A DNA stretch of 64,000 bases from Candidatus Iainarchaeum sp. (lineage in GTDB: Archaea; Iainarchaeota; Iainarchaeia; Iainarchaeales; VGJJ01): NCBI GenBank assembly GCA_043803765.1, contig JAZDJQ010000014.1, positions 1,382 to 65,381 on the forward strand, written 5' to 3'. Shown here piece after piece: positions 14,672 through 32,135 of the stretch; within the stretch, counting starts at the first letter, position 1; each line of letters starts with the position of its first letter. A model generated the notes under the pieces. The model had not been told where the DNA came from. It made no database searches and was given only the letters and a program-made list of their open reading frames with translations. Made by a program: the position numbers and the translations under genes.

Positions 14672-14722
14672 TATGCCTCGGGGGAGGGTGGAAGATAGCG
14701 GTAAACTGCCATTTGTAAGGAA
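14672..14722. repeat. tRNA-Met 3'-end core (atgcctcgggggag) plus a conserved extension. Paralog of 5853-5905.
   Basis: Exact 14-nt core, then roughly 45 nt that is about 85% identical to the 5.9-kb copy. Confidence 0.6.
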
Positions 14723-14822
14723 CAATACCGAACAGTATGTAGGAGTAAATAAAGGTTTCCGAGCCTGCGAGGGGGACATCACCATTTTGGAAAGCAAATC
14801 GATAGTTATTTTTTCAGATTGA

Positions 14823-15221: not shown

Positions 15222-15232
15222 TCAAACACCGC

Positions 15233-16525
15233 CTATCGCGAATCAGGATTTTCACGCAGATTAATTATCCAGTAAAACCCTGCTCCAATTATTAAAAATA
15301 AAAATAAAATCTGAAGATAGCCCCAGTCACTTGTTTGATCCCAATAAGAGTTGTAAAACACGGTTCCTTTGAAGGCCTTATCCTTGGCTGATGCATAATG
15401 TCCTGCTTTGTATTCAGATTCGCTTCCACTATTGTATAAAACGTAGCCGAGCCAGCTAACTATTTTCAGAGGATTTCCTTTGGACATGTTCTTTTCACGC
15501 AAATCGTTTTCTAAACGCATTTGGGTGTCGGCTGGTCGTTGCAAATCAGCCAAGGCCGAACGATACTTGTCATTTGCCAATTTGCTTTCCGATATTACAT
15601 TTTGAGTGGCGAGTACACTCGGCTCTATGTCCTTTTTGAAATTGTAACCGATGCAATACTGTTCACTGGTTCCAAGATTCCCAATCGCCTCTACCGGCTC
15701 GGAAAAATCAATCTCATCTGATTGAGTTAAAATCCAGAGCGCGAAGTTCGTTTGATCGATGCGTGAGACTGTTTCGCTCGAGTAGTTTCGATTTTTCGCG
15801 TCGTAAAACGGTTGCCGGATTTCATTTGACAGGTTGAACATCGACAAGTCAACCTTGTCCGTGAGGGTACATGAAAGATCGCGTGTTAGCTGTAGGAAAA
15901 TGAAATATTCTGATCCTTGAATGGCCACTACCTTTTTTGAAAAGCGAATCCATTCTCTGCCGGCACGCTCGACAATTTCCCATCCATTTTGTTGCGCCTT
16001 TTCAGCAAATACATCAAAAACTTCTTCGGGAACGGTGGCTGAAATATTCCAAACGTTCGAGTCCACGAAGCTTACGATTTTTCCCGTAAAATTACAAATG
16101 TCGTTGGCCCCAGAAGCCCATTTCTTACACTGAATAGTGTTATCATATGTGGAAAAGGGGAGCTGGTAAATGCTGTTGTAATGGTAGATTGCTTCGAAAA
16201 CCGTTTGCGACTCATTTTCGTTCGTCACGAAACGACATTGGCCACTTTCATTTTTTACGAGGGCTGTCCAATTGGAATCGAACGTCAAGAGGAAGTAACT
16301 TTTTTCATCAAATTCGAGATTCTGGTATTTGAAATCGGGGTTAAACGACCCGTATTCGGGGGCAAAATGATTTGCGTCACAGTATTGAATGTACGCGTAG
16401 TTCGTTTTCGGCTCAATGATATTTCTATCGCCAAGTCCCTTAGCGGCAAACATGAAAAGCCAGCTCCCAACAACCACTACAAGGATGATTGCCACGACCC
16501 ATGCATCCACTTTAGAACCAGACAT
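15233..16525 (-). CDS. Membrane-anchored extracellular protein (TM helices at both ends).
   Basis: N-terminal AWVVAIILVVVVGSWLFMF; C-terminal ILFLFLIIGAGFYWIINL. Confidence 0.4.
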   Translation of the reverse strand: MSGSKVDAWVVAIILVVVVGSWLFMFAAKGLGDRNIIEPKTNYAYIQYCDANHFAPEYGSFNPDFKYQNLEFDEKSYFLLTFDSNWTALVKNESGQCRFVTNENESQTVFEAIYHYNSIYQLPFSTYDNTIQCKKWASGANDICNFTGKIVSFVDSNVWNISATVPEEVFDVFAEKAQQNGWEIVERAGREWIRFSKKVVAIQGSEYFIFLQLTRDLSCTLTDKVDLSMFNLSNEIRQPFYDAKNRNYSSETVSRIDQTNFALWILTQSDEIDFSEPVEAIGNLGTSEQYCIGYNFKKDIEPSVLATQNVISESKLANDKYRSALADLQRPADTQMRLENDLREKNMSKGNPLKIVSWLGYVLYNSGSESEYKAGHYASAKDKAFKGTVFYNSYWDQTSDWGYLQILFLFLIIGAGFYWIINLRENPDSR

Positions 16526-16580
16526 TAAATAGCAAAATATTGATTAACACCTTTTCAACCTTTCGGAGTTTATCATTAGA

Positions 16581-17276
16581 ATGGACCCCCAAATCAAAGA
16601 TGTTCTCACGCTTCTCGACGAAGCGGCCCATAAACGATGGTCGATTCGAGAAGAGCAGTTCAAGATGTATAAAATTGATACAACCGCAGTCGCCCAAGCC
16701 CAACAAATGGGTTTTATTCATTGGACCGGCGCAAACTATATTCTCACCGCAACAGGTCACGAAAAATTGTTACAATACGAGTCAGTCGATTCTCTACGAG
16801 AGATCCGAAAACACCTCCGAGTGGATAAAAAAGGCGTCATTTTTGATAGCAACGCGTACGATAAAATTCTAGAAGGAGCTTTGACAAAGAGTGATATCGA
16901 ATTGAGCCGACACAAAGGATTCGATTATTATATCACACACATCCAGGCAGACGAGGTTGTGCGTTGCCCGGAAGTCGACAGACGCCAGCGATTAACCCTT
17001 GCAATGCTCACGCTAAAGCCAATTGTTATCCCTACCGATTCAACGGTAGCAGGAGTATCACGGGTGGGATTTTCACGGTTAAGTGATGGACAAGACATGG
17101 AAAGCATTCGTAATGGCAGTCAAAGGCATACGAATGACGCATTGATAGGAGAAACTGCAATAAAAAATAAATTAATTCTTGTAACAGAGGACGATAGGCT
17201 TCGAACCAAAGTAAAAGATGCGAAGGGTATCGCAATGACTATCGCTGAATTCAAAAATGAAATCGAAAAAGAATAA
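16581..17276 (+). CDS. PIN-domain protein with an N-terminal extension of about 80 aa.
   Basis: GVIFDSNAY (first Asp motif) and the C-terminal DALIGETAIKNKLILVTEDD (PIN C-terminal motifs). Confidence 0.55.
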   Translation: MDPQIKDVLTLLDEAAHKRWSIREEQFKMYKIDTTAVAQAQQMGFIHWTGANYILTATGHEKLLQYESVDSLREIRKHLRVDKKGVIFDSNAYDKILEGALTKSDIELSRHKGFDYYITHIQADEVVRCPEVDRRQRLTLAMLTLKPIVIPTDSTVAGVSRVGFSRLSDGQDMESIRNGSQRHTNDALIGETAIKNKLILVTEDDRLRTKVKDAKGIAMTIAEFKNEIEKE

Positions 17277-17809
17277 TGAGAGTTATATTCATGAATTTTC
17301 AACCTTCAAACCAGCACCAAAAGTTTTTCGTCGAACATATATTGGCGGCTGGCAAAAAGTATACGAAACCAAAACCAATGGCCACATTACGTCGAACAGA
17401 CTTTGGAAAGGATGGATTTCTGGATTGCTATAATTCCTTTAACCAATATCTAAGGTGGCACTACTCTGGAACAGATAGGGACATGATAAATAGTTTTGTA
17501 CAAAATTTTGGTGCTACCTACCAAACTACTTATGATGGAGGATATCCAGAAAAGTTATATCGGGATTTAACATTCCTACAGAAAAAACAGGTTCCAAATC
17601 TAAGTCAACCAGGAAAATCAATTATCGGGATAAACGATCCGAAAGACTTGTCCCAAGTTATTGATTATTTGTATGTTATCCGATGTAATTTTAATCATGG
17701 ATCATTTTCAGTTCATGACGAACTTTACCAATCTATTGCGATACCTTCTTTTGAGGTTTTTTACTTAATTCTGTTCAAGATTCTTCGCCACGAAATACCA
17801 AATCAGTAA
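17276..17809 (+). CDS. Hypothetical protein.
   Basis: ORF only; its start overlaps the stop of the PIN gene. Confidence 0.3.
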   Translation: MRVIFMNFQPSNQHQKFFVEHILAAGKKYTKPKPMATLRRTDFGKDGFLDCYNSFNQYLRWHYSGTDRDMINSFVQNFGATYQTTYDGGYPEKLYRDLTFLQKKQVPNLSQPGKSIIGINDPKDLSQVIDYLYVIRCNFNHGSFSVHDELYQSIAIPSFEVFYLILFKILRHEIPNQ

Positions 17810-17827
17810 TCATTCTATCTCTAAAAA

Positions 17828-18337
17828 TCACTCAAAATGTATTGTTCCGTTTTCGGCTATTCGTGCGATTTGCCAGTCGTATTTCTTTTCTTTGACTACT
17901 TGGTTTAGTTGTTCTCGTTGTGCGTTAAGCGGGGAGTTTTTCAGGTTTTTTGATAGGAGTAAAATTTCGTCTACTGTTCCATTTTTTGTCATGCCGTCGA
18001 AGACCACGAAGTCGATTGGATTCAATATAGGTTTCATGTCGTAGGGGTTTATTTTCAGTTCTTTAAGGATGGGCGAGATCGCTTTTCTTATTACTTTTTC
18101 TGCGCCTAATTGCCCTTTTTCGATTTGAATTTTTCGAATGTTGGCTTCTTTTTCCTCAAACGATTCGACATTCTGTTCCAATACATTCATCTGTTTCTCG
18201 TAGTCGTCCAGCCATGTTTTTGGTGTTGGGGTTTTGGTGAATATCCGAAGGTCGGATACCCTGACTATTTCGTCACAGCACGGACAAAGGCAGAGTATTT
18301 TTCTAAATTCTTGGTACTCTTCTCCGAATCCTTTCAT
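17828..18337 (-). CDS. Zinc-ribbon plus Hjc-like (PD-(D/E)xK-fold) domain protein, paralog A. The catalytic ExK is apparently degenerate.
   Basis: LCLCPCCDEI Cys cluster; GAEKVIRKAISPILKELK...PIDFVVFDG...VDEILLLSKN. The start is taken at MKGFGEE (ATG 18335-18337), overlapping the upstream paralog's TGA as ATGA. Confidence 0.45.
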   Translation of the reverse strand: MKGFGEEYQEFRKILCLCPCCDEIVRVSDLRIFTKTPTPKTWLDDYEKQMNVLEQNVESFEEKEANIRKIQIEKGQLGAEKVIRKAISPILKELKINPYDMKPILNPIDFVVFDGMTKNGTVDEILLLSKNLKNSPLNAQREQLNQVVKEKKYDWQIARIAENGTIHFE

Positions 18338-18831
18338 TTTACCACCTTGAAGGATACTTTTTTGTCGTTTACTGCGTCTTTGACGGCTTTTTGGTGGGAG
18401 TTCAATCGTGCATTTCCTGTTTTTACTTCGATGAAACTCATGGATTCTATTTTGTTGTTGCAACAACCGTTGAAGGTGATCATGTCAATGGGTTCGCCTA
18501 AAAACCGACAATCGGGCAACGCCCATTTGAAATCTTTTAAGATCGGAAAGAATACTTCCATTTCTTGCCCGAAGCCAACCGCTCTTGCCGTGATCTCTAT
18601 TTTTTTAGTGTCTTCCAATGATTTACTCCTTTTCTCGAAATCTTTCTTTTGTTGCTCAAAATCTTTAAGCAAACGTGCCCGCACAGCTAAGGCTTCGGGA
18701 GGAAAAGACTTCGTTCCATCAAATAAGAATGCTTCACCCAGCTTGAAACTTTCATTACATGAAGGACATTCCGCGTAAAGCTTCGAATCCTTCAACTCAA
18801 GAATCGTTTCTTTGGTGTCTTTACCATCCAT
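18334..18831 (-). CDS. Zinc-ribbon plus Hjc-like PD-(D/E)xK nuclease domain protein, paralog B. The catalytic motifs are intact.
   Basis: ECPSCNESF; GQEMEVFFPILKDFKW...PIDMITFNG...IEVKTGNARL (E..., PD, ExK). The start is taken at MDGKDTK (18831) to avoid overlapping the upstream gene. Confidence 0.45.
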   Translation of the reverse strand: MDGKDTKETILELKDSKLYAECPSCNESFKLGEAFLFDGTKSFPPEALAVRARLLKDFEQQKKDFEKRSKSLEDTKKIEITARAVGFGQEMEVFFPILKDFKWALPDCRFLGEPIDMITFNGCCNNKIESMSFIEVKTGNARLNSHQKAVKDAVNDKKVSFKVVK

Positions 18832-18847
18832 ATTTTCGCTCCATCGA

Positions 18848-19453
18848 TCACTTTTTCTTTTTCGGGGATAGGATAGTGAATTTCGCAACCAGTCCAAGGA
18901 CAATCAATCCGCCCACTATGAGAGCGATAGAAGAAAAATCGGATTCCGGTACTTTACTTTCAACAAAGTTCATTGTATTGGCATCTTCTCCCATATTTAG
19001 AGTAGAAGCCGATTTGAATGACACTGTATAATCGTCAACCAGTTCCCCGTTGTGAGTGGTAACCTTCGAAGGCATTGTAACTTTCGTAAGGATAGAAACT
19101 CCGGCAGGAGTCCTCTTATCCTCATAACGCAAATACTTTCCGTCCGTTTTTACAATAATTTTTACCGGATTTCCGCCTTCAGATGGAGATAAATCATATT
19201 CGATTATGAGTTCGGAATCAGTCTCTCTGCAAACGTTGTCGATTCGACTCAGGACAGATGGATCGGCTTCTGGACTATTTTGTGCCATATTTTTGAGCGA
19301 ATTACAACTAGCGTTCGCCAATATCCCCGTTTTATCCAAAGAAACAAGACGATGTACGCTACCGTCAGCATTCACTTTCTCAGTCTGGCTACCGGAAATA
19401 CAGCCAGAAAGTACGACCATTCCAACCAAAAAAATCAAAATCACCTGCTTCAT
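18848..19453 (-). CDS. Lipoprotein or membrane-anchored secreted protein.
   Basis: Signal peptide plus lipobox MKQVILIFLVGMVVLSGC. C-terminal TM plus KKKK. Confidence 0.5.
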   Translation of the reverse strand: MKQVILIFLVGMVVLSGCISGSQTEKVNADGSVHRLVSLDKTGILANASCNSLKNMAQNSPEADPSVLSRIDNVCRETDSELIIEYDLSPSEGGNPVKIIVKTDGKYLRYEDKRTPAGVSILTKVTMPSKVTTHNGELVDDYTVSFKSASTLNMGEDANTMNFVESKVPESDFSSIALIVGGLIVLGLVAKFTILSPKKKK

Positions 19454-19466
19454 TTTTTGCCTCGTT

Positions 19467-20192
19467 TTATTGCTCCGTATAATTTCTGAATCGTGCCCTT
19501 ATTTGGTCTCCACCTATTCTTGCTACTCCGTTTATTTCAACTTTGTTAAATTGGCTTACATCGAGGGTTCCGGTGTAAACCAATGTTCCATTGTAGTAGA
19601 CATTGTACCCCGTTAGTGTCTTTTGGATTTTGTAGGTGTCAAAAGTTGAAGAAGGTAAATCGGGAGAGACATATTTGAAACTGTCGCTACCGTTTACCCG
19701 TTCGATAATGAATACGTTTGAGTTGTATTGCGGGTCGGTAATGTCCCTATGCTTGTTTACAATGAGGGCATTTTGATTATCTTTAACAAACCAAATACCT
19801 GCTGAAGCCGCGCTCGAGGGCAAATTTTCCAACGCAACATCAACTTGCACAGTCGTTTTGGTTGTTGGCCTACTGATTCTTCCCTCACTAACCCATGCCC
19901 CTTGCCAAGAATTAGTTATCGACTGGCCTTCAACCGTTAGAATAGGCTGATTACTACCTGAAACGGTCACACCAAACAGAGGCATACTATTCCAATTCCA
20001 AGAGTATCCGCCCCAAGAAAATCCTGGTCGACAAATTTGAACGGCAGTAGTAACTGACTGTGCGGAAACATTTTGAAAAGAAACAAACAGGACGGAAGCG
20101 AACAAGAGCAATACCAAGAGAGTTGCTCTATTTCTCCCAAGTCCGAAAAGAGCTTGGGGTTTAGCGCTGTTGACAGTTTTTTTCGTTATCAT
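19467..20192 (-). CDS. Secreted beta-rich protein, possibly a lectin/LamG-like fold.
   Basis: Signal peptide ...LLVLLLFASVLFVSFQNVSAQ. Confidence 0.45.
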   Translation of the reverse strand: MITKKTVNSAKPQALFGLGRNRATLLVLLLFASVLFVSFQNVSAQSVTTAVQICRPGFSWGGYSWNWNSMPLFGVTVSGSNQPILTVEGQSITNSWQGAWVSEGRISRPTTKTTVQVDVALENLPSSAASAGIWFVKDNQNALIVNKHRDITDPQYNSNVFIIERVNGSDSFKYVSPDLPSSTFDTYKIQKTLTGYNVYYNGTLVYTGTLDVSQFNKVEINGVARIGGDQIRARFRNYTEQ

Positions 20193-20262
20193 AGGGTACT
20201 CATAGCGAGGATATTTAATAAGTCACATGATTACTCGAATTGTCAAACCACAAATAGTGCAC

Positions 20263-20409
20263 TCAAACACTTCTTTCTTCCATTCTTCCAGAATGACATT
20301 CACCGCAACTGCTCGAAGAGTTACAGGATGAGCACGCACTCAAACCGCACTTATTGCATATTTTTACCCTGGACGTTGTTCTCTCACAATTATGGCATTT
20401 TATTGACAT
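20263..20409 (-). CDS. Small Cys-rich protein (48 aa, four CxxC motifs). Below the ORF-track cutoff; speculative.
   Basis: My own translation gives MSIKCHNCERTTSRVKICNKCGLSACSSCNSSSSCGECHSGRMEERSV. Confidence 0.2.
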   Translation of the reverse strand: MSIKCHNCERTTSRVKICNKCGLSACSSCNSSSSCGECHSGRMEERSV

Positions 20410-20492
20410 CCAACCACCTCAAATAAGCATTATTCTCCAGGTTTAAAATATTACCCCAAAAATGGGGTTATTTACAAGAAGAATACGCAGGA

Positions 20493-20756
20493 TTAATCCA
20501 TTTTGACCTTGTCCAAATTTATGTTGGCTTTGACCAGCATTTCTCGGCCATCCCGCCGCTTCTCTACCAATCCCTCTTTCTCCAGCATAGTGACGTAATC
20601 TGCACACTTATTGTAGGCCAGATTGGTCTCTCTACTAAGTTCTGTCACCGTTTTGGACCCATTTTGGGTTAGCTCGAGCATCCTGAACCGAGTCTTATTG
20701 GCCATGACTCTGATTTTTCGATAAAGCTCCTCACGACGAATACCAGTCTTGAACAT
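20493..20756 (-). CDS. Winged-helix (ArsR/MarR-like) transcriptional regulator, divergent from mod. Possible controller of the R-M system.
   Basis: RFRMLELTQNGSKTVTELSRETNLAYNKCADYVTMLEKEGLVEKRRDGRE is an ArsR-like HTH. Confidence 0.55.
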   Translation of the reverse strand: MFKTGIRREELYRKIRVMANKTRFRMLELTQNGSKTVTELSRETNLAYNKCADYVTMLEKEGLVEKRRDGREMLVKANINLDKVKMD

Positions 20757-20825
20757 ACACCATTTTCAGGGTACCTTTTATAACTCAATAGAACACCACT
20801 TTTGGTGTAGTATTTGGGTTGTTGA

Positions 20826-22874
20826 TTGGAAATGCCGGACTCCTTGATTGAAGAACTTCCTCGCATAATGGCGTATGGAAAAAAGGAAGCTCAGCGCATC
20901 TTAGACGGACTCTCCAAGCAAAATCGGGTTAGTTTACAAACAAATGAAATGGTTTTGCCCACGAAGGCCAAGGCCGGAATTTTCTCCCATTTTGGCCAGG
21001 CTCTACACAGTTCTACTGATGTTGAATGGTTCAACCGAATGATTTACGGAGACAACATTCTAACGATGCAGGCTTTATTAGCCGGCGACTCCGAAACAGG
21101 GCTGCCTTCCATGCGAGGAAAAATAGACCTAATCTACATCGACCCACCATTTGACTCCAAAGCAGATTATCGGACAAAAATTCATTTACCGCATACAGAC
21201 ATTGAGCAGCGTCCAACTGTCATTGAACAATTTGCTTATTCAGACACATGGGAACATGGGACAACATCATACTTGAAAATGATGGTACCACGACTTATCC
21301 TCATGAGGGAACTACTAAGCGAGAAGGGAAGTATCTACATTCACATTGATTGGCACGTTGGACACTATGTAAAAGTAATGATGGATGAAATATTCGGAAA
21401 AGAGAATTTTATCAACGAGATTATTTGGCAAAAAGTAAGGTCTTCAAAAGGACAAGCAAAATCGTTTGGCAATGTTCATGATTCAATTTTTGTTTATGCG
21501 AAAACAAAATCTTATTTCTTCAATAAATTGTATACCGAACACGATCAAGAAAGACTTGATACTCATTATAATAATATCGAATTAGAAACTGGTAGGAAAT
21601 ATCAACTGGCAGATTTTACACAAAAAGGTCAAGGTGAACCAAAAAAATTTTCGAATATATTACTGACACCTCCTACTGGTAAACATTGGATTTGGTCACA
21701 GGAAAGAATTAATGAGGGAATGGTAAAGGGATTAATTGTTTTTACTAAATCAGGCAAGCCAAGAGTAAAAAGATTTTTAGATGAGTCGCAAGGATCTCCA
21801 ATTGAAGACATTTGGACTGATGTATTTCCAATTAACTCTCAAGCCATCGAATCTATCGGTTACCCAACACAAAAACCAGAAGGACTTCTAGAACGAATAA
21901 TCAAGGCATCTTCAAACGAAGGAGATTTAGTTTGCGACTTCTTTTGTGGTTCTGGCACAACAGCTACTATCGCAGAAAAACTTGGTAGAAAATGGATTGC
22001 TTCTGATTTAGGTAAGCCAGCTTGCATGATTATGCGGAAAAGATTGATTGACCAAGATGCGAAGCCTTTTTTGTATCAGTCTATTGGAGATTATCAGAAG
22101 GAGCAGTTCGAACATTCGCAACACAAGACAATCGGAGAGCTATCCCATGTCGTGATAAATTTGTATGGGGCATTACCTTTTCCTTACGGCCAGCATCCAC
22201 AAAATAATTTAGGGTATATCAAGCAGTCTAAAACCCTTGTTTTTGTCGATTCGCCTTCTAAAATGACGGGGGCTAATACTTTGAAAAGAGCGCGGGAGTT
22301 GCGTGCTTCTTTTGCAGGAGGGTGGGAGAAAGTAGTTGTTTTGGGTTGGAATTTTGTCTGGGATATTGGACAAATCGTTGAAACAATGAATGACCCAAAA
22401 TTAGAGGTTTTGGTCATTCCGCCCGACCTACTTGATCGCTTGAAAACCAAGGCCAGTTATGAGCAACTAATCAAATCAGGAAAAATCCGCTTTTCCTCCC
22501 TGCAGTATTTGACCGTGAAACCCATCATTAAGAACGATTCCGATAACGATCAGGACGAGTTGATTGTTTCCCTTGACAATTATATTCTGTTATCCCCAGA
22601 CGCGCTTCCACTGGACAAAGAGAACAAGGAAAAGCTAGAAAAAACAATCGAGAAAGACCCATTGAGCTTGGTAGAATATTGGAATATTGACCCCGATTAC
22701 GATGGAGAAATTTTTCGCAGCAAATGGCAGGAATATCGAGAAAACAACAAAGACCTCCGAATTAAACGAACCGCCAAAATTCTCGTACCCAAAATCAAAG
22801 GGAAGCGAAAAGTATGTGTGAAAGCAGTCGATGTTTTTGGTTTTGAAAGCGCTACTGTCCAGGAGATTGATTAA
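20826..22874 (+). CDS. mod: Type III restriction-modification DNA methyltransferase (Mod), N6-adenine/N4-cytosine beta class.
   Basis: Motif [11 protein letters not shown] precedes motif [10 protein letters not shown]. Directly followed by res, with the stop abutting the start. Confidence 0.8.
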
Positions 22875-25775
22875 ATGGTTAATATCAAATCTCTTGGAAC
22901 GGGAAGTATCCCGCTTCGGTTAGCCGATTTGATTTCTGAAATGGCCAATAAGGAATGGGAAGAAGGAACATTTATCGAGAAAACGACTCCTATCACGCGA
23001 GATCTAATGCGGTATTGGGACCCGAAAGGAACTTTTTCCGATTCAAGGAAAGTAAATTTCCACGAGGGACAATGGCAGGCTATTTTGAATGCTATTTATG
23101 TCCATGAAATATTGAAAGTGAAAAGCGTCCACGACTTGTATATGTCTATTCGCCCGGAGTTATTGGCTGAGATGGATATGATAGATTTGAAAAAAGAGAA
23201 ATACGACTACCCGAAATATTGTATCCGAATGGCAACCGGAACGGGAAAAACATGGATTTTATCGGCATTGTTGATTTGGCAATATCTTAATGCGAAATAT
23301 GAAGAAAAACCGTCGAATCGATTTTTCAAAAATTTTTTATTGGTCGCGCCGGGAATTATTGTATATGAGCGGTTACTGGATGCATACCTTGGTAAACGAA
23401 AGGAAGATAGCAAAAGGGAATTTGAGGAGTCCGATTTCAAAAAATTCGAATCGCTTTTAATTCCAACTGCCTATACTGAAGAGATCTTAGGTTTTATCCA
23501 ATCTAGCGTGTGCCAAAAAGACGAAATTGGAAGTAAAGTCACTGGAGACGGGCTGATTGCGATTACTAATTGGCACTTATTAATGGGGGACGAAGAAGAC
23601 GATGAAGAAGGGACCCCGCTTGACACACCATACAAGGCTATTCGAAAAATGCTTCCCATTACTCCCGGCAAAACGGGAAAGCATTCGTTGGAAACGTTGG
23701 ACAATCAATACCTGCGCGGGAAGGGGATGGATTTCCTGGTGAATCTTACGGACTTGGTTGTATTCAATGATGAAGCCCACCATTTGGGTGAATTCAAGAA
23801 AGAGGATGAAATACTGGAGAAGAAATGGCAACAAGCATTGGACATGATTGCAAAAAGTAAAAGGAACTCTTTTTTGCAAGTTGATTTTTCCGCCACCCCA
23901 TATATCATAACGGGATCGAAAAAGAGAACGAAACACTTTTTCCCGCATATTATTACTAATTTTGAAATTGTTCGAGCCATTAAACTTGGATTGGTTAAAA
24001 CGGTGGCCATTGATAAGCGAAAGGAAATTGCTTCACTACCATTGGAGTTCAAGGCTGAACGAGAGGGGAACACAATCAATTTGTCCGATGGTCAGCGGAT
24101 CATGCTCAGCGCAGGGTTGGAACGGTTAAAAATTTTGGAAGAGGGATTTGAAAAAGAAGACAAAAAAAAGCACCCGAAAATGTTGGTGACGTGCGAAGAC
24201 ACCTCTGTGGTGCCGTTAGTAACGGAATTTCTGAAACAAAAAGGATTATCCGAAGAAGAAATACTTGAAATCCATTCCAATAAAAAAGGAGAAATCGGCC
24301 AGGTAGAATGGGAAAAAATAAAGATGCGATTATTCAATGTGGACAAGAGCCAAAACCCAAAAATAATCATTTCTGTGCTGATGCTGCGCGAGGGCTTTGA
24401 TGTGAATAATATTTGCGTAATTGTCCCTCTACGCTCAAGCACATCCTATGTTTTATTGGAACAGACGATTGGCAGGGGTCTCCGACTCATGTGGCGTGAG
24501 CCAATATACGAGGACAGCAAACGCGAAAACAGGGAAAAATTATTGATTCGAAAGGAAGAACCAGATAACTATATGGATATTTTGTCCATTGTCGAGCATC
24601 CCGCATTTATCGAGTTTTATGAAAAGGAGTTAAGCGAAGCGATTGGACAGACCAAAGTGCTTCCAAAAAAGGATAAAGTGGTGGGGGATATCATTTCCAT
24701 CGGCCTGAAAGAAAATTATCAAAATTACGATTTCTTCTGGCCAGTTATAATCCATGATAAAGAAGAATACCTGAAATCCGAGGAACTTTCCATCGAAAAA
24801 CTGCAACCTTTTCCAATCAGTTTGGAAGAACTAAAACCATTCATCAATCGAGCAGGTGACACATTCTATGGGGAAGAATTGACCGTCAAGACAAAGTTTG
24901 GGGAATACACAGTAACTTCTGATATTTTTTCAGCCAAGAGCTATAATTCGTTTATTCAAAAAATTGTGAACGCTGTCAGCACTATCACAGTAAAAATTGG
25001 GAAAAAATCGCCTAAAAATTTTCCTACCATGCAAATCAATACTGCCATCGTGGCAAAATTAACTGATGAATACATTCGGACGAGGTTATTTGGGCAAAAG
25101 TTCGACCCTTTACTCGGAAATAACTGGAGAGTCTTGGTCATAACACAGGAACGAATCATTCAGCACATTATCAAAAATATTAGTCAATGCATTTATGACT
25201 TACAAAATAACCTAGACGTTCGCGATGCCCGAATTGAAAAGAGGTATTTTTCCAGTATTGGAGAGATGAAAATACGGGATACATATTCTATCAATGTAGC
25301 CAAAACAATCTACGATAAAATAGGGTTTCCATCGAATAAAGGGGGATTTGAAAAAGCATTTATCGAGTTCATTGATTCGGATTCAAAGGTAAAGGCTTTC
25401 ATGAAAATCAACGAGTATTACCATGATTTTGCCTGTATAATGTACCTTCGGGATGATGGAATGCTGCCTCGATATTATCCCGATTTCATTGTTCGTATAG
25501 CTGACCAAGTCTATTTAGTTGAAACAAAAGCCGACAGGGATCTGAATAATGTGAACGTCAAACAAAAACGATTGGCGACGTTGGATTGGATTGCTAAAGT
25601 GAATAAGTTAAAACTGGAAGATCGAATGAGTTGTATCTGGAATTATGTTCTACTCGGCGAAAATACATTCTATGGAATGAGTGAAAAAGGCGCCACTACC
25701 CAGGAAATACTCGAGTACGCCAAACTATCTAAGGCCAAAGTCGAAGGAACACTTGGAGACTATTTGACACAATGA
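22875..25775 (+). CDS. res: Type III restriction enzyme Res subunit (SF2 helicase plus C-terminal PD-(D/E)xK nuclease).
   Basis: Walker A MATGTGKTW, DEAH box VVFNDEAHHLG, helicase motif VI QTIGRGLR. C-terminal YPDF...VYLVETK. Confidence 0.8.
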   Translation: MVNIKSLGTGSIPLRLADLISEMANKEWEEGTFIEKTTPITRDLMRYWDPKGTFSDSRKVNFHEGQWQAILNAIYVHEILKVKSVHDLYMSIRPELLAEMDMIDLKKEKYDYPKYCIRMATGTGKTWILSALLIWQYLNAKYEEKPSNRFFKNFLLVAPGIIVYERLLDAYLGKRKEDSKREFEESDFKKFESLLIPTAYTEEILGFIQSSVCQKDEIGSKVTGDGLIAITNWHLLMGDEEDDEEGTPLDTPYKAIRKMLPITPGKTGKHSLETLDNQYLRGKGMDFLVNLTDLVVFNDEAHHLGEFKKEDEILEKKWQQALDMIAKSKRNSFLQVDFSATPYIITGSKKRTKHFFPHIITNFEIVRAIKLGLVKTVAIDKRKEIASLPLEFKAEREGNTINLSDGQRIMLSAGLERLKILEEGFEKEDKKKHPKMLVTCEDTSVVPLVTEFLKQKGLSEEEILEIHSNKKGEIGQVEWEKIKMRLFNVDKSQNPKIIISVLMLREGFDVNNICVIVPLRSSTSYVLLEQTIGRGLRLMWREPIYEDSKRENREKLLIRKEEPDNYMDILSIVEHPAFIEFYEKELSEAIGQTKVLPKKDKVVGDIISIGLKENYQNYDFFWPVIIHDKEEYLKSEELSIEKLQPFPISLEELKPFINRAGDTFYGEELTVKTKFGEYTVTSDIFSAKSYNSFIQKIVNAVSTITVKIGKKSPKNFPTMQINTAIVAKLTDEYIRTRLFGQKFDPLLGNNWRVLVITQERIIQHIIKNISQCIYDLQNNLDVRDARIEKRYFSSIGEMKIRDTYSINVAKTIYDKIGFPSNKGGFEKAFIEFIDSDSKVKAFMKINEYYHDFACIMYLRDDGMLPRYYPDFIVRIADQVYLVETKADRDLNNVNVKQKRLATLDWIAKVNKLKLEDRMSCIWNYVLLGENTFYGMSEKGATTQEILEYAKLSKAKVEGTLGDYLTQ

Positions 25776-25972
25776 CTGACTTTGAAGAAATGAGTGTAAT
25801 GTGCCCCAAATGCGGGGAAAAGAACACAATTATGTGGTTCCCTGCGAGACACCATTATGTTAGACAAAAAGGAACAACGGGCGGATCGGAATTAGCCTTT
25901 CGAGGCAAAAACGAAAAAGTACAGGGAAAATGTAAGTGTGGTTATACATTCAAGCCAAAGGATTTAGACTAA
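25772..25972 (+). CDS. Small zinc-ribbon protein, translationally coupled to res (ATGA overlap).
   Basis: CPKCGEK...CKCGYTF. Its ATG at 25772 overlaps the res TGA at 25773-25775. Confidence 0.45.
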   Translation: MTDFEEMSVMCPKCGEKNTIMWFPARHHYVRQKGTTGGSELAFRGKNEKVQGKCKCGYTFKPKDLD

Positions 25973-26095
25973 TATCGACGAACCGATTAGCTCAGTGGAG
26001 AGTGGCCGGAAGTTAGATGGGCGGGATGAATTTTCGTATGAGTACCCGTGCCGTCAAGTGCATCTTTTATAGGTTGAAGGCTGGATAGGTTTTCT

Positions 26096-26638
26096 ATGCC
26101 CACTTTTTATTTTGATATTGAGACTACGGGTTTGGATGAGAAATCGTGCAAAGTGATTACCATCCAGTATCAGGAGTTAGATCGGAATTCGGGTAAACCA
26201 ATTGGTGAACTCGTTATTTTGAAGGAGTGGGAGTCTTCCGAGCGCGATATTTTAGAAAAGTTTTTGATGGATACAGGGGCAGGAAACCCGCACCCTTTTT
26301 CGTTTGTTCCTGTGGGTTATAATTTAACGTTTGAGCATAATTTTTTGAAGGAGCGAACGACAGTGAATCGTTTTGCACCATTCGATATTCTGAATAAACC
26401 TTGTATTGATTTACGGCCCATTGGTGTGATTATGAATCGAGGAGAGTTCAAAGGATCAGGCCTCGATAAAATTACTGGAAAACCCATGAACGGAAGCCAA
26501 GTACCCTCTTGGTATGCCAACAAAGAATATCAAAGAATTGTGGAATACGTTCAAGCCGAGGCCAAAGCATTCAATGAACTAAACGTATGGCTATACCAAA
26601 AACTGCCCGAATTTCTAACAACATTCAAGCAAAAATAG
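26096..26638 (+). CDS. DEDD-family 3'-5' exonuclease (DnaQ/RNase T-like).
   Basis: Exo I FYFDIETTGLD; Exo II-like VGYNLTFEHNFL. Confidence 0.6.
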   Translation: MPTFYFDIETTGLDEKSCKVITIQYQELDRNSGKPIGELVILKEWESSERDILEKFLMDTGAGNPHPFSFVPVGYNLTFEHNFLKERTTVNRFAPFDILNKPCIDLRPIGVIMNRGEFKGSGLDKITGKPMNGSQVPSWYANKEYQRIVEYVQAEAKAFNELNVWLYQKLPEFLTTFKQK

Positions 26639-26656
26639 TGTCTGGAATCCATTTTT

Positions 26657-27049
26657 TTAGTTCTCTTCCGGTACTCGCAATCGCTTGACAATATCCTCGA
26701 CGGTAATCCGATTTTCATCGTCCGCAGGAGGTACTTTTTCCATGGCTTTTACCGTAATCCCGCAAAGGAATCCAATACAGTTCGCATGATTGATAGTAAC
26801 GCGATTTTGGCGGACATCGTTGACCGTTTGTTCCAATAACGCTACCACATCCTTAACACTCTTGATGGCTACCGAATCTTCGGCTGGTTCCAACACCACT
26901 TTGCGTCCATTACGACCGCCTTCTACCTTAGCCAAGTGGCGCTTCTCCACCATCTCAGGCAGTTGTGAGTGTGCAAAACAATACACATCACTCAAGATTG
27001 CCTGTGCTTGGCACATGTTCCCGTCTTCCTTGATATACGTGCATTCCAT
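26657..27049 (-). CDS. Hypothetical protein.
   Basis: ORF only. Confidence 0.3.
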   Translation of the reverse strand: MECTYIKEDGNMCQAQAILSDVYCFAHSQLPEMVEKRHLAKVEGGRNGRKVVLEPAEDSVAIKSVKDVVALLEQTVNDVRQNRVTINHANCIGFLCGITVKAMEKVPPADDENRITVEDIVKRLRVPEEN

Positions 27050-27064
27050 GCCTGATCCTCCGGT

Positions 27065-27496
27065 CTACTTCGTGGTACTGATTAGAAAGGCATAATCACT
27101 ACGGACAAATGGATTGTTTTTTCGCCACAACTTGATAGAAAAGCAGTCCGAATAGCAATCGGATTCACCCGTGAAAATTACTTCGTAATCCATTTTCTTG
27201 ACTACGTCTAAAACGGTTTGAATTTCCATCCCAGTAACTAAGCACGGTTGCAAAGTGATTACGTGTGTTTTTGGATTATACCTCGCTTCGTGGGTGACAC
27301 GGCTATGGCCTTTTGGGGCGAGCTTATTCAGAATCGATAACTCTGGATTCGTGTAAGCTAGACATTGTGGGTCACCACATAAATAATCCTCGATAGCCCC
27401 GTGGTTCATGTATTCCTTGGTACGATAAACTGTTTTACCGCACTCTGGACAGGGAAAGTCGTTTGCTTGTATCTCTATTCTTTCAGTTTCATTCAT
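27065..27496 (-). CDS. Hypothetical zinc-ribbon protein.
   Basis: CPECGKT...CGDPQC. Confidence 0.35.
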   Translation of the reverse strand: MNETERIEIQANDFPCPECGKTVYRTKEYMNHGAIEDYLCGDPQCLAYTNPELSILNKLAPKGHSRVTHEARYNPKTHVITLQPCLVTGMEIQTVLDVVKKMDYEVIFTGESDCYSDCFSIKLWRKNNPFVRSDYAFLISTTK

Positions 27497-27544
27497 ATTT
27501 TCACCTCGTTTTTAGAGAGAGCGAGCACGCGCCCACCCCACATG

Positions 27545-29065
27545 TTATAGTTGTTCAGTTGCCCCTCCCGTATTTGCTGTGCTACCCGTTTCTGCTGTGG
27601 AGAGATCTATTCCGCCTAATTCGTCTCCACTCAACGAAGCACGGGTGTCACGGGCCGCACGGGAGTTACGGGAGAGCCACCGTTTCGCATTATATTTTGC
27701 GAACAGGCTGTTCATTGAGGCATCCTCCCATTGAATCGCGCGGATACTATTCCCCTCTGAATTTTTCTCGTAATCGACACGGATTCCAAGTGCTTTCAGA
27801 CGCTTCCCAATAATCCCCCCTCTGTCAGTCCTATTCAGAACTGTAGTCGCAACGTCGCTGGGGGTGATTTCTTTTGTTAGGTTCGCCTCACTCCGCTCGA
27901 TAAGATAGTGAACGATTTGCCCATCCAAAGTGGATTCACGTTCCTTTACCACACGAAGGTTGTACCCGTATACAAAATTGGTGAACTTGTCCCATAGAAC
28001 AGGGTCGTTTCCAAAAAGAACGGAAAAAGCAAGCATGGCCTGCTTAATACGTGAGTCCGCCCCGCCCAGTTGCATTTCCTGGATGATGTCAACGTTAAGC
28101 TTGTTCCGGTTACGCAACCGATACATCAAGAGCTTCCCGCGCAGTTCCTCCTGTTCGAGATAAAACCATGATGGAAGTATATTTGGAATATCATCACGCT
28201 TCGTTTCCTTCATTTCCTCCGTAATACATCGACTTTCGAGTGCTGAATCGGAAAAAGTCGACCGCGAACTAATTACCTTAGGGCCAAAAACGTCATGAGT
28301 TTCAATGTCATTTGGATCGTTTACATCACATCGCAAAACAGGCTTATTTCGCTCATATCCACAGTTAAGAATTTTCACGACCTCATCGGCATGGTCACTT
28401 TTTCTACGATCCGCTTCTTCGATAATGACGGTACCTTTCCAAACGCTCTGCATCCGATACAAAGGCGCCGCTGTTACTGCACCATTTGAAAGGATTGGAC
28501 GATAACACAAATGCCCAACCGCATCCAAACCGCGTGTCTTTCCAGTCGAAAAGTCTCCAATGAAACGGAGATATGGAACGGTGTGCAGAATATCAAATAC
28601 CCATGAAAGGAGAACGTAATACGCTGAAAAAAGTTCAAAATCGCTGGAAACATCTACGTACTTGTGAACAAACGCGCGAACATCTTCAACCAGTTTTTCC
28701 TCGCTTTCGTATTCTATGGCTTTCTTTGGCAAAATGACCGCGCGCTTTTTTACAGTTTCATTAACGAGCGGACAATACCTTTTCCCTAAGTAGTCCACGA
28801 AGTCAGAGTATTCTATTTTTCCTTCTTCCGTCAAGTGTACGAATTGTGCAGTATTACCATCAAACACAAGTTCGTAAATGGTGTTCCCAACTTCCACCAT
28901 AGGTGTCTCCTCTTCTTCAAGGCCCATGAACGAAAACTTTTCGCCACTACATCCAGAACATTTTTCAGGAGGATTCTGGGAGGCCATTATTACGGTGCAG
29001 TTATTGCACGCCCACGCTTGCGGGGTTAGATATAGTTTTCCTCGTGCCATTTTATTCACCCCCAT
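27545..29065 (-). CDS. P-loop NTPase with an N-terminal zinc ribbon. Putative SF3-like helicase or replication protein of the integrated element.
   Basis: Zn ribbon CNNCTV...CSGCSG. Walker A IGDFSTGKTRG. Walker B GTVIIEEAD. Confidence 0.5.
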   Translation of the reverse strand: MGVNKMARGKLYLTPQAWACNNCTVIMASQNPPEKCSGCSGEKFSFMGLEEEETPMVEVGNTIYELVFDGNTAQFVHLTEEGKIEYSDFVDYLGKRYCPLVNETVKKRAVILPKKAIEYESEEKLVEDVRAFVHKYVDVSSDFELFSAYYVLLSWVFDILHTVPYLRFIGDFSTGKTRGLDAVGHLCYRPILSNGAVTAAPLYRMQSVWKGTVIIEEADRRKSDHADEVVKILNCGYERNKPVLRCDVNDPNDIETHDVFGPKVISSRSTFSDSALESRCITEEMKETKRDDIPNILPSWFYLEQEELRGKLLMYRLRNRNKLNVDIIQEMQLGGADSRIKQAMLAFSVLFGNDPVLWDKFTNFVYGYNLRVVKERESTLDGQIVHYLIERSEANLTKEITPSDVATTVLNRTDRGGIIGKRLKALGIRVDYEKNSEGNSIRAIQWEDASMNSLFAKYNAKRWLSRNSRAARDTRASLSGDELGGIDLSTAETGSTANTGGATEQL

Positions 29066-29324
29066 TACGTCGAACAGAGTCTGTTAGCCCAACGATTAGA
29101 AAAGCCTCGCCGTTCGAAACTGCCGGACTAATTGACACGGTACTGCACGAGCCATAACCATTTACCATAGAGCTCGGGATGCGCAGCATGTAACATCTTC
29201 GTTCTTTTGCCCACAGACTGCGTTCAATTCGCAATCCGCGAAAAACGTCAAATTGCTGAGAGGTTGTTCCGGGAATTGTAGTTACCTGCACTCCCGCCTC
29301 ATTTTTAACTATCGTTCGATCCAT
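29052..29324 (-). CDS. Hypothetical protein. A shorter start at MDRTIVK is preferred.
   Basis: ORF only. Confidence 0.25.
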   Translation of the reverse strand: MDRTIVKNEAGVQVTTIPGTTSQQFDVFRGLRIERSLWAKERRCYMLRIPSSMVNGYGSCSTVSISPAVSNGEAFLIVGLTDSVRRNGGE

Positions 29325-29713
29325 ATTGTGTGTCCTGTGGCTTTCCGTTCTCGGCGAGCCACTTTTTTTGGGCTTCCGTCGGCAAAAACCCCCCTTCAAC
29401 GGCTTTACGAAGAAGCGTGATATATGCCGGCGGGGGCGAAAACTCCAATTTAGGGAGATTGGGTTGCATCCGTTTCTCCCTTTTCCATTTCCTTTTGCAG
29501 ACAATACCGGATAAGTCCGCTTAGGGTTCGACCACTATTTTGGCCGTATTCCTTCGCGGCCTCCGCAACGTTGGGTGGCAAGGAAATGGTGATTTTTCGG
29601 TATTTTTCGTGTTTATCGCCCATAACCAGTATGGTCGAGCGCTTATTTTTAAGTATTACGGTAAACTATTCTGTCATATACCAATAATACTTCAGTCATC
29701 GGAGGCTGGTGTC

Positions 29714-30784
29714 ATGGCTCGAAAGAAGGCGACAATAGACCCATATTTCAGGGAGTTGGATAACGAATCAGTTGCAAGTGTTGTCGTGTTCATCTATAAA
29801 ACCCAAAAGGAGACAAACCTACCGGTTCGCTATTTAACAATTAAAAACGAGATTTGTATCGTCAGAAAAATAATGTCCGAAAAGCACCTAACCACTATTT
29901 TGGGGATGTTATTTGAAAAAGAGTTATTGGAAAGGAGAGAAGAAAATCGAAAAAAGGTTTTTTACAGCATTAATCCAAATCTTCGGAATCAAATCCCGCC
30001 CTTTTTTGTTCGTTCATCCGATAGGCAAATCCTTTCATCATATTCTCAAAAAGAAATTGTGGTAGACCAAAAAGTTCGTGCGTATGGACTGGATCATGAA
30101 ACTTTTGATAAACCAGCCAGCCAGCTCTTTTTCCACGGAGTAGGTGTTTCAGATATTTTCCCGATTAAAGAAGATGAGGTAATAGTTATTCTTCCAGACA
30201 GCATGACAAATTCTAAACTGATTATTGGGAAAATATACAAACAGGTACATGAAATAAGCAATAGGAAAGTTTCAATAATGTCGAGATCGCAGCCGCTTTC
30301 TGGGATTCTTCCGGTTTTGAGAAATCTATTGTATAGAACGGCAGAAATATCAAAAGAAAACCGAGCAGGCGAATTAAAAAAATACTATGAAACATATACA
30401 TCACAAGAAAAAGTGATTTCGTCTTTTTTAGGGAGAAACGAAGAAATCCTCCTGCACTTTTTGAGTAAAAAGAATTGGGACAGGGAATCAATTTTGGAAA
30501 ATTTGAAACGTCCCATAATAGGAACCCGAATTGATGATTCCAATTACACCCCAACATGGCATGGAAAAGACATTACTGAACCTTTTTTGAAGGAACTACA
30601 AGAACTGAATATAGAGGAACGAGAAAAGATAGCCAATTTCTTCGTGAGTGTAACACAAAAATGTAAACCTCTCCCTCAAAAAATAAGTCTCGTTGCCCAT
30701 TCGTTAGATCCAATTTTTGAAAAATCGGACTACATCGACAAACATGCAAAAACGTTTATGGATAATATAGATAAACAATTGTAA
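29714..30784 (+). CDS. Hypothetical protein with an N-terminal winged-helix-like region.
   Basis: Start at MARKKATIDPYF, with a GGAGG sequence 8 nt upstream. The longer ORF-track start at 29540 is rejected. Confidence 0.4.
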   Translation: MARKKATIDPYFRELDNESVASVVVFIYKTQKETNLPVRYLTIKNEICIVRKIMSEKHLTTILGMLFEKELLERREENRKKVFYSINPNLRNQIPPFFVRSSDRQILSSYSQKEIVVDQKVRAYGLDHETFDKPASQLFFHGVGVSDIFPIKEDEVIVILPDSMTNSKLIIGKIYKQVHEISNRKVSIMSRSQPLSGILPVLRNLLYRTAEISKENRAGELKKYYETYTSQEKVISSFLGRNEEILLHFLSKKNWDRESILENLKRPIIGTRIDDSNYTPTWHGKDITEPFLKELQELNIEEREKIANFFVSVTQKCKPLPQKISLVAHSLDPIFEKSDYIDKHAKTFMDNIDKQL

Positions 30785-30785
30785 A

Positions 30786-32075
30786 CTATCTGGGTCGCAT
30801 GACTTCGAGTGCTTGCTCAGGAGTCAGTTGATCTACTTTTACGTTGAGTTTGTTCATCGCTTCAACCATCGCATTCAGCACGCTTCGTATTTGCCCATTC
30901 TCCTCCTGCATTTGTGTTAATTTATCTTTGTATTCCAGTCGCGCTTCCAATGTGAGGGGATTGTTGCATTTTTTGCAAAGAAGATTCGTGAACTCATTTA
31001 GTTCACCGCAGATATTGCACAATCGTGGTTTTAGAATACTTTCCTCGTCCTTTTCTTTTTTCCCTAATCCATAGATTTTTCGAACGGCGTCGTGAACATC
31101 GCGCCCAGAAAGATGAATATAGGTAGCGGGCATTTCACTACCAATTTGCCAGCCCATGACCTTGCACAATTGGGCCTCCGTTAATCGTCCAGCCAAATAA
31201 GTTGCGCGGGAGTGCCTCCAGTGATGCGGATTATAGGGTTTGTTGATACCTGCCCTCGTTGTTGTTTCGTCCAGAATTTTTCGGATTGAAGCATAGGAGA
31301 GTCTTTTTCCGCGATGTACGGGAGAAACAATCACAAACAAAGGCGCATTCTTGTCATCGCGTAGGGGGTGAATGTCTAACCATCCGCGAAGAAACGGAAC
31401 ACTGGACACCAAAAGGACTTGCCTCATTCCGGTTTTTCCATCAAGCATGGCTGTGGCTTCGGTTCCATCAAATTGAATTGATTTAATTTTAGCATTACCA
31501 ATCTCACCGATGCGCGCACCCGTTTCCCACAAAATAGAAATGAGCGCTTTTTTCATGGGATGATCGGCCACTTGAATGATTTTGATGATTTCGTCCTCTG
31601 ATAGCATCTCTTCTGGCAGTTTGTGCGAGTTTCCGCTTCGGATGCATTTAATCCATCGGACTTGGGACGGAAAAAAGTCGTTGTCGCCCAACAACCATTT
31701 GTAAAAGGCCTTGAGCATGCGTTTGTGCATAGTTCTTGTAGTCTCCCCCCACCCATTTCGATTCACGATTTGAGAAACAAGGTGTTCAATATCTTCTCGT
31801 GTAGCGGACTCGAAATCCTTCCCGATCATTTCAGCCAAATTAGCCATCGTGAATAATACGCGGATTCGGCGGGCAAGACTGATGCCTCCTTCATTTTCCA
31901 AATGAATTCGATAGCGTTCAATCGTGCGTTTGTTTGTCTCGCTGATAATGTACGGTTTACCCTGCTTTCCGTGCTTCTTCTCAAAATCGCGTGGATATTT
32001 TTCTGGGAAAATTCGACTTAACAATAGCTCGTAGCGTCTTTCGTAGTTATGAAAACTCGTGGCTTCTGGCGGCAT
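30786..32075 (-). CDS. int: Tyrosine recombinase/integrase (XerC/D-phage integrase family) with a C-terminal zinc ribbon.
   Basis: Catalytic residues: WETGARIGE (Arg), HHWRHSRATY (HxxR), YIHL (Tyr). C-terminal CNICG...CKKC. Immediately adjacent to the tRNA-Met 3' end. Confidence 0.85.
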   Translation of the reverse strand: MPPEATSFHNYERRYELLLSRIFPEKYPRDFEKKHGKQGKPYIISETNKRTIERYRIHLENEGGISLARRIRVLFTMANLAEMIGKDFESATREDIEHLVSQIVNRNGWGETTRTMHKRMLKAFYKWLLGDNDFFPSQVRWIKCIRSGNSHKLPEEMLSEDEIIKIIQVADHPMKKALISILWETGARIGEIGNAKIKSIQFDGTEATAMLDGKTGMRQVLLVSSVPFLRGWLDIHPLRDDKNAPLFVIVSPVHRGKRLSYASIRKILDETTTRAGINKPYNPHHWRHSRATYLAGRLTEAQLCKVMGWQIGSEMPATYIHLSGRDVHDAVRKIYGLGKKEKDEESILKPRLCNICGELNEFTNLLCKKCNNPLTLEARLEYKDKLTQMQEENGQIRSVLNAMVEAMNKLNVKVDQLTPEQALEVMRPR

Positions 32076-32135
32076 ATAGGCACTCCCCGTTCGGTTGGTT
32101 TTATTCTTTACGGGGGCACTTTACTGCCATCTTCA

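Follow-up and report, generated by a model that had tools for sequence, protein, structure and literature searches.

The window analyzed here, a 64,000-nucleotide (nt) stretch of contig JAZDJQ010000014.1 from the archaeon Candidatus Iainarchaeum sp., contains a Type III-like restriction–modification (R-M) operon in which a methyltransferase gene (mod) and a helicase-nuclease gene (res) are preceded by a divergent gene for a winged helix-turn-helix (wHTH) protein and followed by a small gene for a zinc-ribbon (ZR) protein. The ZR is the main subject of this report, since it belongs to a rare family that accompanies DNA methyltransferases (MTases) of many kinds, in R-M systems and in archaeal viruses alike. 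The ORF list and the sequence confirm all four open reading frames (ORFs) at the coordinates given in the first-pass annotation of this DNA. Lengths of proteins are in amino acids (aa), and other genomic and metagenomic loci fetched for comparison are designated by L numbers.

20493-20756, minus strand: wHTH gene, encoding an 87-aa winged helix (ArsR/HTH_24-like), a candidate repressor or controller
20757-20825, no strand: divergent control region, the 69-nt spacer between the wHTH gene and mod
20826-22874, plus strand: mod, 682 aa from a TTG start, a beta-class N6/N4 DNA methyltransferase, Type III Mod-like
22875-25775, plus strand: res, 966 aa, an SF2 helicase-nuclease, Type III Res-like
25772-25972, plus strand: ZR gene, a 66-aa stand-alone four-cysteine ORF (CPKC...CKC)

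The two enzyme genes bear out the Type III-like operon that the first-pass annotation had described. Mod matches the Pfam family N6_N4_Mtase (3.1e-46) and the PADLOC model MTase_III (9e-80), and its translation displays the IDPPF and FCGSGTT motifs of a beta-class Mod. Its true start is probably the ATG at 20832, which aligns with the start region of relatives. Res matches ResIII (1.4e-13), Helicase_C (1e-05), and the PADLOC model REase_III (1.4e-28), along with a weak RE_endonuc match that falls under the cutoff (0.0022), and its translation combines the helicase motifs GTGKT and DEAHH with a C-terminal YPDF...VETK (PD...ETK) characteristic of a PD-(D/E)xK nuclease. According to the ORF list, the mod stop at 22874 and the res ATG at 22875 abut with zero spacer. 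This arrangement of a beta-class N6/N4 Mod followed by an SF2 Res with a C-terminal PD-(D/E)xK nuclease is shared with the EcoP15I and EcoP1I Type III systems, to which the window adds the divergent wHTH gene and the trailing ZR gene. The R-M core of the locus is ordinary. Its scores miss the NCBIfam equivalog cutoffs for PRK15483 (33 bits versus 564) and BPTD_3080 (207 versus 800), and mod-res represents a divergent lineage outside these two equivalogs. The Res family comprises 4393 relatives, including one 100% match, a protein of a Candidatus Diapherotrites metagenome-assembled genome (MAG). In relatives of the operon, an extra gene encoding 158-240 aa lies between mod and res (L021 and L022, 4525-5001 in each; L009, 5499-5993; L008, 5275-5997), and the window copy is without it (22874/22875); the product gives 0 Pfam matches, and its hydrophobic N terminus may be a membrane anchor.

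The ZR gene starts with an ATG at 25772 that overlaps the TGA of res as ATGA (caATGAct), an overlap that the first-pass annotation had reported and that is evident in the sequence. The gene is co-transcribed with res in this operon and probably translationally coupled to it. A word-indexed search for related proteins identified 4 close clusters, a HMMER search of 1.84 billion representative proteins identified 18 relatives, and a profile search extended the family to 57 protein clusters. All members are stand-alone proteins of 47-106 aa, some with acidic C-terminal tails, that follow the pattern CPxC-x6-[VIL]xWFP...G[TS][TR][GA]G...EKVxGxC(x)xCGYxFKxxDL(D/E). Residues C11, P12, C14, G52, and C54 are invariant, and W22, G34, V50, C56, Y58, F60, K61, D64, and L65 are nearly so. 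The window gene and its counterpart in L001 are separated by 32 synonymous and 5 non-synonymous differences with saturation of the synonymous sites, a pattern that points to an old divergence under very strong purifying constraint. Because of the 57 related clusters and this synonymous excess, the ORF is a real gene rather than a chance reading frame, and the conservation of frame on which the first-pass annotation had staked the ORF holds in its relatives.

The family is rare and genuinely undescribed. Pfam, NCBIfam, PADLOC, and PHROGs hold no family for the ZR, and a literature search found no published description of one. The named sources of family members are all Ca. Diapherotrites. A scan of Joint Genome Institute (JGI) metagenomes yielded 0 loci with a narrow alignment of the family (A1) and 24 with a second alignment (A3); the same two alignments gave no confirmed relatives in IMG/VR viral contigs, and tblastn against INPHARED phages and PLSDB plasmids gave no match. 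The exact window protein is missing from a 15-billion-protein collection that contains the adjacent Res at 100% identity, and so annotation of the deposited MAG probably missed this ORF.

The first-pass annotation took the small protein for an accessory that partners the Res subunit of the Type III system, a claim that was to be given up if the ORF proved absent from every homologous res locus. Absence is what we observe in all five of the close res-homologue loci surveyed (L007, L008, L009, L021, and L022; 62-77% Res identity), as determined with a hidden Markov model on six-frame ORFs for L007-L009 and from called-gene tables for L021 and L022. This res-side survey covers 5 loci of ≈4400 res relatives, its census being limited by a single-sequence scan of genome contigs with Res that returned 3 loci. 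Because the closest R-M homologues lack the ZR, it is dispensable for the function and catalysis of Mod and Res. Conversely, closely similar ZRs adjoin quite different enzymes. In L001, a Type III res with just 25% identity (the mod there has 36%) precedes a ZR that is 92% identical to that of the window. L005 has an 83% identical ZR whose gene is followed, after 74 nt, by a Type I hsdM. In L003, a PolB-encoding virus-like contig, one small gene separates a 71% identical ZR from the orphan N6_N4 methyltransferase gene downstream of it. Among these three loci and the window, DNA similarity ends at the borders of the ZR ORF. These observations show that the ZR is independent of Res, and they do not support it as a Res partner.

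To define what the ZR does travel with, we gathered its contexts, for the most part short contigs from metagenomes, by exact-protein look-ups and the metagenome scan; their genes were annotated with Pfam and through phmmer comparison to reference MTases. In ≈22 of 24 non-redundant contexts, the ZR has an amino-MTase or R-M module no more than three genes away, mostly at a distance of 0-2 genes and in the same orientation, separated by -4 to +75 nt (binomial p < 1e-9 under a 30% background, a rate that is assumed rather than taken from a measured control). The contexts, by type of system, are as follows.

Type III: ZR after res in the window and L001; ZR before mod in L035 and L044
Type I: ZR before hsdM in L005; after hsdM in L038; after hsdR and one small gene in L014, L040, and L051
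Single-chain IIG-like: ZR directly after the gene in L012 and L041; MTase upstream at a gap of ≈1 kb in L030; one gene away and convergent in L010; divergent, with a putative MTase, in L033
IIS or multi-MTase Type II: ZR after AlwI in L018; divergent from a beta + alpha MTase operon in L015; also L052
Orphan beta MTase: always ZR then MTase in the viruses L003, L017, and L023/L046/L048; beside an insertion sequence in L043
PLD-helicase + MTase system: L045

The ZR is indifferent to the class of MTase that it adjoins (alpha, beta, or gamma) and is far more conserved than its neighbors. The MTases next to it in viruses are 38-44% identical to one another. Clustering of the ZR sequences is independent of R-M type, with individual clusters mixing types. 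Archaeal or viral features found on these contigs include TBP (L017), PolB (L003), and a terminase (L023). Because the ZR accompanies orphan viral MTases and takes variable positions relative to R subunits, it is tied to DNA methylation genes and not to restriction genes. Its association is broader than the first-pass annotation proposed, extending to DNA methyltransferases and R-M modules generally, including those of archaeal viruses.

Beyond MTases and R-M subunits, no neighbor family recurs across the ZR contexts. The modules in common are confined to single locus pairs (L015 and L018 share a trio comprising a 300-aa protein, ThsB_TIR, and 8xMP; L001 and L014 share a PDDEXK_1 protein) and to integrases. 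The trio is shared by otherwise different islands (L015, 12155-14164; L018, 11499-13334) at 36-60% identity and includes a ThsB-type TIR protein. We also considered the ZR as the anchor of a conserved mobile-element backbone and rejected this idea, as the element in the window shares just integrases with the other loci.

These distributions bear on whether the ZR has any functional link to its neighbors at all. It might instead be a mobile-element gene of unrelated role that accumulates together with R-M genes in shared cargo or defense islands, where many unrelated genes concentrate, a picture that fits both the lack of a ZR in near relatives of this R-M system and one context with no nearby MTase (L034). 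We nevertheless regard this explanation as quite improbable, because same-strand adjacency is immediate in about 22 of the 24 contexts and spans six kinds of MTase system, because the window holds its ZR inside the operon of the sole DNA methyltransferase detected in 64 kb, and because no other neighbor family is recurrent.

In several Type I loci, a conserved protein of ≈128 aa adjoins the ZR, either before or after it. This protein gives 0 Pfam matches; by sequence, the PDB entry closest to it is PH1033, an EVE-domain protein aligned over nearly its full length (1wmm, E = 0.023). The EVE-like protein may be a modified-base reader paired with the ZR. It is encoded at the following positions.

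L038, 6195-6578
L040, 5570-5965
L051, 5579-5965
L032, 222-602
L050, 1274-1660

Two further loci have distinctive arrangements. In L035, ZR paralogues at 101-307 (plus strand) and 5111-5323 (minus strand) lie in opposite orientation on either side of a single Type III mod-res pair, and the second paralogue probably belongs to a neighboring system past the contig end. The possibility that the two are inverted terminal repeats around the R-M unit was rejected, since these paralogues are only 48% identical and their DNA shows no similarity. In L003, the small gene between the ZR and the orphan methyltransferase (10209-10493) encodes an unrelated four-cysteine protein (94 aa; CGKCG...CEKC).

The CPxC and CxC/CxxC knuckles of the ZR are invariant and bracket β-strands, features that place it in the zinc-ribbon structural class, and it is a zinc ribbon outside any described family. 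An AlphaFold2 model built from a 56-sequence alignment is all-β with five strands and a mean pLDDT of 66.6. A Foldseek search with this model against PDB and BFVD returned no match at E<0.1, and the top rows (eS27, the RadD ribbon, and Cren7) indicate just a small β/zinc protein. A sequence-profile search of the PDB likewise gave nothing significant. The Pfam similarities are sub-threshold and limited to a single knuckle, with 32 of 56 members matching the TFIIS ribbon and 20-28 matching TFIIB, Zn_ribbon_3, and Zn_ribbon_4.

A small four-cysteine protein encoded beside a DNA-modification gene invites comparison with Com of phage Mu, a zinc protein of similar length (≈60 aa). Com, a zinc-finger protein, is encoded immediately ahead of mom or, in Mu-like phages, of a DNA adenine MTase gene (PMC6483171, PMC3299994), and the viral relatives of the ZR keep the order of ZR then MTase. 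The ZR could accordingly be a Com-like RNA-binding translational regulator that switches the mRNA of the adjacent modification gene and so times methylation relative to restriction or the viral cycle. In keeping with this role, the ZR is small, basic, and four-cysteine, and in all viral or mobile-element contexts (L003, L017, L023, L046, L048, and L043) as well as in L035 and L044, its gene directly precedes that of the MTase on the same strand, the two overlapping, being up to 20 nt apart, or having a single small ORF between them, a gene order that matches the com-mom and com-MTase operons described in the same two papers. One ZR member also weakly matches a PHROG annotated as a translational regulator (E = 0.0096, one knuckle). 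Although it ranks second among the mechanisms weighed here, we consider this role unlikely all the same. Whereas com is upstream of its target, the window ZR follows res, and the ZR is 3′ of MTase or R-M genes in the window and 10 other contexts; the upstream position does hold in the viral loci L003, L017, L023, and L048. The cysteine spacings differ (CxxC-x16-CxxC in Com; CxxC-x39-CxC or CxxC in the ZR), and the Com family is not among the Pfam matches of the ZR. Moreover, ZRs that are 83-92% identical adjoin unrelated R-M mRNAs that share no k-mer at their translation-initiation regions.

The absence of a shared cis element is general. Counts of k-mers upstream of the MTase and ZR genes revealed none above shuffled controls, either in the first 11 contexts or in the four loci whose ZRs are 71-92% identical, which argues against a Com-like regulator as well as against a controller acting on DNA. 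Such a transcriptional controller of the neighboring R-M genes, analogous to the controller (C) proteins of other R-M systems, is a very unlikely role for the ZR. Points in its favor are the capacity of zinc ribbons for DNA binding, the tight linkage between the ZR and R-M operons, and single-knuckle TFIIS- and TFIIB-type similarity, weak as it is, in 20-32 of 56 members. Yet no operator travels with the gene, given that DNA similarity ends at the ORF borders and that no common promoter motif is found, the ZR is often at the 3′ end of operons, it accompanies orphan viral MTases too, and the operon in the window already has a conserved wHTH protein with a palindrome of its own.

That wHTH protein is encoded where the first-pass annotation had recognized a controller-type position, and conservation of both gene and control region upholds this reading. 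The protein matches Pfam HTH_24 (3e-07) and HTH_45 (4e-07), with TrmB also among its winged-helix matches. Its scores against the ArsR/SmtB family are sub-threshold (NCBIfam NF033788, 37.5 bits with a cutoff of 55; Pfam HTH_5, 20.5 with a cutoff of 22), and by sequence it is a generic winged helix outside the ArsR/SmtB metalloregulators. No HTH_3/Xre match was obtained in Pfam or NCBIfam, and the fold of the protein is not recognizably that of a C protein. Orthologues of 86 aa with 61-62% identity are encoded in L021 and L022, the two closest relatives of the operon (Res 77% identical), in both cases divergently and 67-71 nt from mod. L008 (Res 64% identical) has a small, weaker-matching divergent wHTH gene at the equivalent position, and L009 has none at the divergent position. 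On this evidence, the wHTH gene is a conserved component of this R-M lineage. The control region between it and mod contains the following elements.

20776-20783: TATA-like element, TTTTATAA
20793-20808: palindrome, ACACCA-N4-TGGTGT
20757-20773: degenerate copy of the palindrome, abutting the wHTH start codon

Compared with L021 and L022, the control region has 81% mean column identity, and the arms of the palindrome are invariant. The ACACCA-N4-TGGTGT palindrome occurs once in the window (expected 0.07) and, among 52 fetched loci, in just L021 and L022, at the equivalent place. It would lie ≈20-30 nt downstream of the TATA-like box and over the expected archaeal start site of mod; because of this position, we infer a repressor that occludes initiation. 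The near-palindromic TTTTATAA is separated from the wHTH ATG by ≈20 nt and from the start of mod by ≈45-50 nt, and a single such element could serve both divergent transcripts, in which case the wHTH mRNA would be leaderless. In the mechanism that we propose, the wHTH protein would bind the palindrome and the degenerate copy, which flank the shared TATA box, thereby blocking mod-res initiation from the first site and regulating its own gene through the second. The wHTH protein is thus most likely a repressor of mod-res and of itself, which would make it a functional analogue of a controller protein. Like C.PvuII and C.Esp1396I, whose regulatory logic is reviewed in PMC12707154, it is a small DNA-binding protein that heads an R-M unit beside a conserved palindrome, in a position from which it could govern transcription of the unit and of its own gene. 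C proteins, however, are of the Xre helix-turn-helix type and usually co-oriented with and preceding the restriction endonuclease gene, whereas the window protein is a winged helix encoded divergently from mod, the promoter with its shared TATA box would be archaeal, and the system is Type III-like. We regard the wHTH gene and palindrome as a credible, mildly unusual controller arrangement, one that would constitute a rare instance of an archaeal, Type III-like system regulated in the manner of a controller protein. Just downstream of the wHTH gene lies a 48-aa cysteine-rich ORF (20263-20409, minus strand; CHNC...CNKC...CSSC...CGEC) with 0 Pfam matches.

The operon as a whole is part of an integrated element, defined by the following features.

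14673-32149, no strand: integrated element of 17.5 kb, bounded by direct tRNA-Met 3′-end copies and carrying the R-M operon
14673-14686 and 32136-32149, direct: the tRNA-Met 3′-end copies that bound the element
30786-32075, minus strand: tyrosine integrase gene, abutting tRNA-Met
32137-32210, minus strand: tRNA-Met gene
3442-3455, 5855-5868, 14673-14686, and 32136-32149, direct: copies of the 14-mer ATGCCTCGGGGGAG

The 14-mer ATGCCTCGGGGGAG, which is the 3′ end of tRNA-Met, has four direct copies in the window (expected 0), and a degenerate tRNA-Met copy of 50 nt is found at 11813-11864. This distribution suggests a tandem array of successive integrations, the innermost of which (14673-32149) holds the operon and the integrase. 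On the basis of the tRNA-Met repeats together with the integrase, the R-M operon, which is horizontally mobile, is cargo of the 17.5-kb element that this DPANN archaeon carries at tRNA-Met.

Mobility is a common theme of the ZR contexts, nearly all of which belong to a virus, an ICE-like element, or an integrated element that encodes an integrase. The ZR might accordingly act in anti-restriction or counter-defense, for example by inhibiting the methylation-dependent (Type IV) nucleases that would otherwise attack DNA methylated by the MTase it travels with; on this view, ZR and MTase would cluster because each helps to evade restriction by the host. Type IV-type genes do adjoin the ZR in L014 and L034 (Mrr_cat in both) and in L042 (GmrSD_N) and are close to it in L015, and many anti-defense proteins are likewise small and stand-alone. 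Strong purifying selection (92% aa identity with saturated synonymous sites) is unusual for proteins in an arms race, though, and the ZR forms the 3′ end of R-M operons that are complete and is missing from the phage and plasmid collections INPHARED and PLSDB, all of which makes this role decidedly unlikely in our estimation.

Taken together, we consider it fairly probable that the window carries a mobile Type III-like operon under a wHTH controller whose ZR represents an MTase-linked family rather than a partner of Res. The biochemical mechanism of the ZR we infer throughout. In the model that we favor, it would be a generic, trans-acting accessory of the modification side that is produced together with the MTase, binds a feature common to amino-MTases or to their DNA substrate, and stabilizes, activates, or targets methylation. 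A possible precedent is Trm112, which binds many MTases through a main-chain β-zipper (PMC6144793). As with the ZR, a single small, conserved, zinc-type protein is associated with many diverse Rossmann-fold MTases, including (D/N)PPY amino-MTases (PMC6144793). The putative partners of the ZR are DNA MTases, in contrast to the tRNA, rRNA, or protein MTases served by Trm112; the two proteins also differ in that the ZR has no Pfam match to Trm112 and an all-β model, and in that close homologues of the MTase next to the ZR manage without it. By analogy, a Trm112-like binding or activating role is conceivable, although we hold it only tentatively and think it has less than an even chance of being correct. 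A more specific proposal, that the ZR is a dedicated, portable cofactor of DNA amino-MTases in DPANN-type archaea and their viruses, serving Type I, II, III, and orphan enzymes alike, perhaps pairing with an EVE-like reader, and setting the efficiency or timing of methylation upon entry into a new cell, is speculative and in itself unlikely.

Several observations weigh against the interpretation of the locus that we favor. The five closest R-M homologues lack the ZR. Two contexts are weak, namely L034, which is effectively negative and has just Shedu and Mrr neighbors, and L042, in which hsdM is ≈3 kb away and a GmrSD-like gene comes right after the ZR. The structural model of the ZR is of moderate confidence (pLDDT 66.6) with no significant fold match. 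Neither small-protein precedent is recovered by similarity, as the window ZR has no Trm112p match in Pfam at E<=1, Trm112p is outside the 25 most-matched of the 108 Pfam families hit by the 56 ZR members, and hhalign of the ZR against Mu Com gives a probability of 17.7% over 17 columns, indicating no homology. As for the controller, operator binding by the wHTH protein is deduced from conservation in two relatives alone, and these are closely related.

R-M systems are taken to be self-sufficient modules of two or three genes. A small protein that is more tightly conserved than the adjoining enzymes, and that spans R-M types and viral orphan MTases, would point to an unrecognized common requirement or vulnerability of DNA methylation. 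Candidates for this requirement include establishment in a new host, stability of the MTase, and interplay with methylation-dependent restriction. On a practical level, the ZR family has no database model, and the gene has apparently gone uncalled in the deposited MAG.

The element carries other cargo as well. Immediately beyond the ZR stop, ccgattagctcagtggagagtggccgg at 25980-26010 resembles the 5′ (D-arm) part of a tRNA; neither ARAGORN nor Rfam (E<=1) reports a tRNA there, and Rfam gives no match over 20300-26700. Farther downstream are genes for an RNase_H_2/DEDDh-like exonuclease (26096-26638, plus strand), a 143-aa protein with a weak HVO_2753-like zinc-finger match (27065-27496, minus strand), and a 506-aa protein whose N terminus has a rubredoxin-like knuckle (27545-29065, minus strand), none of which has homologues in the other ZR loci. 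On the other side of the operon, two Endonuc_Holl ORFs (17828-18466 and 18334-18903, minus strand) overlap by 133 nt. These encode Holliday-junction-resolvase-like nucleases and may be either tandem paralogues with mis-extended starts or a single frameshifted gene.

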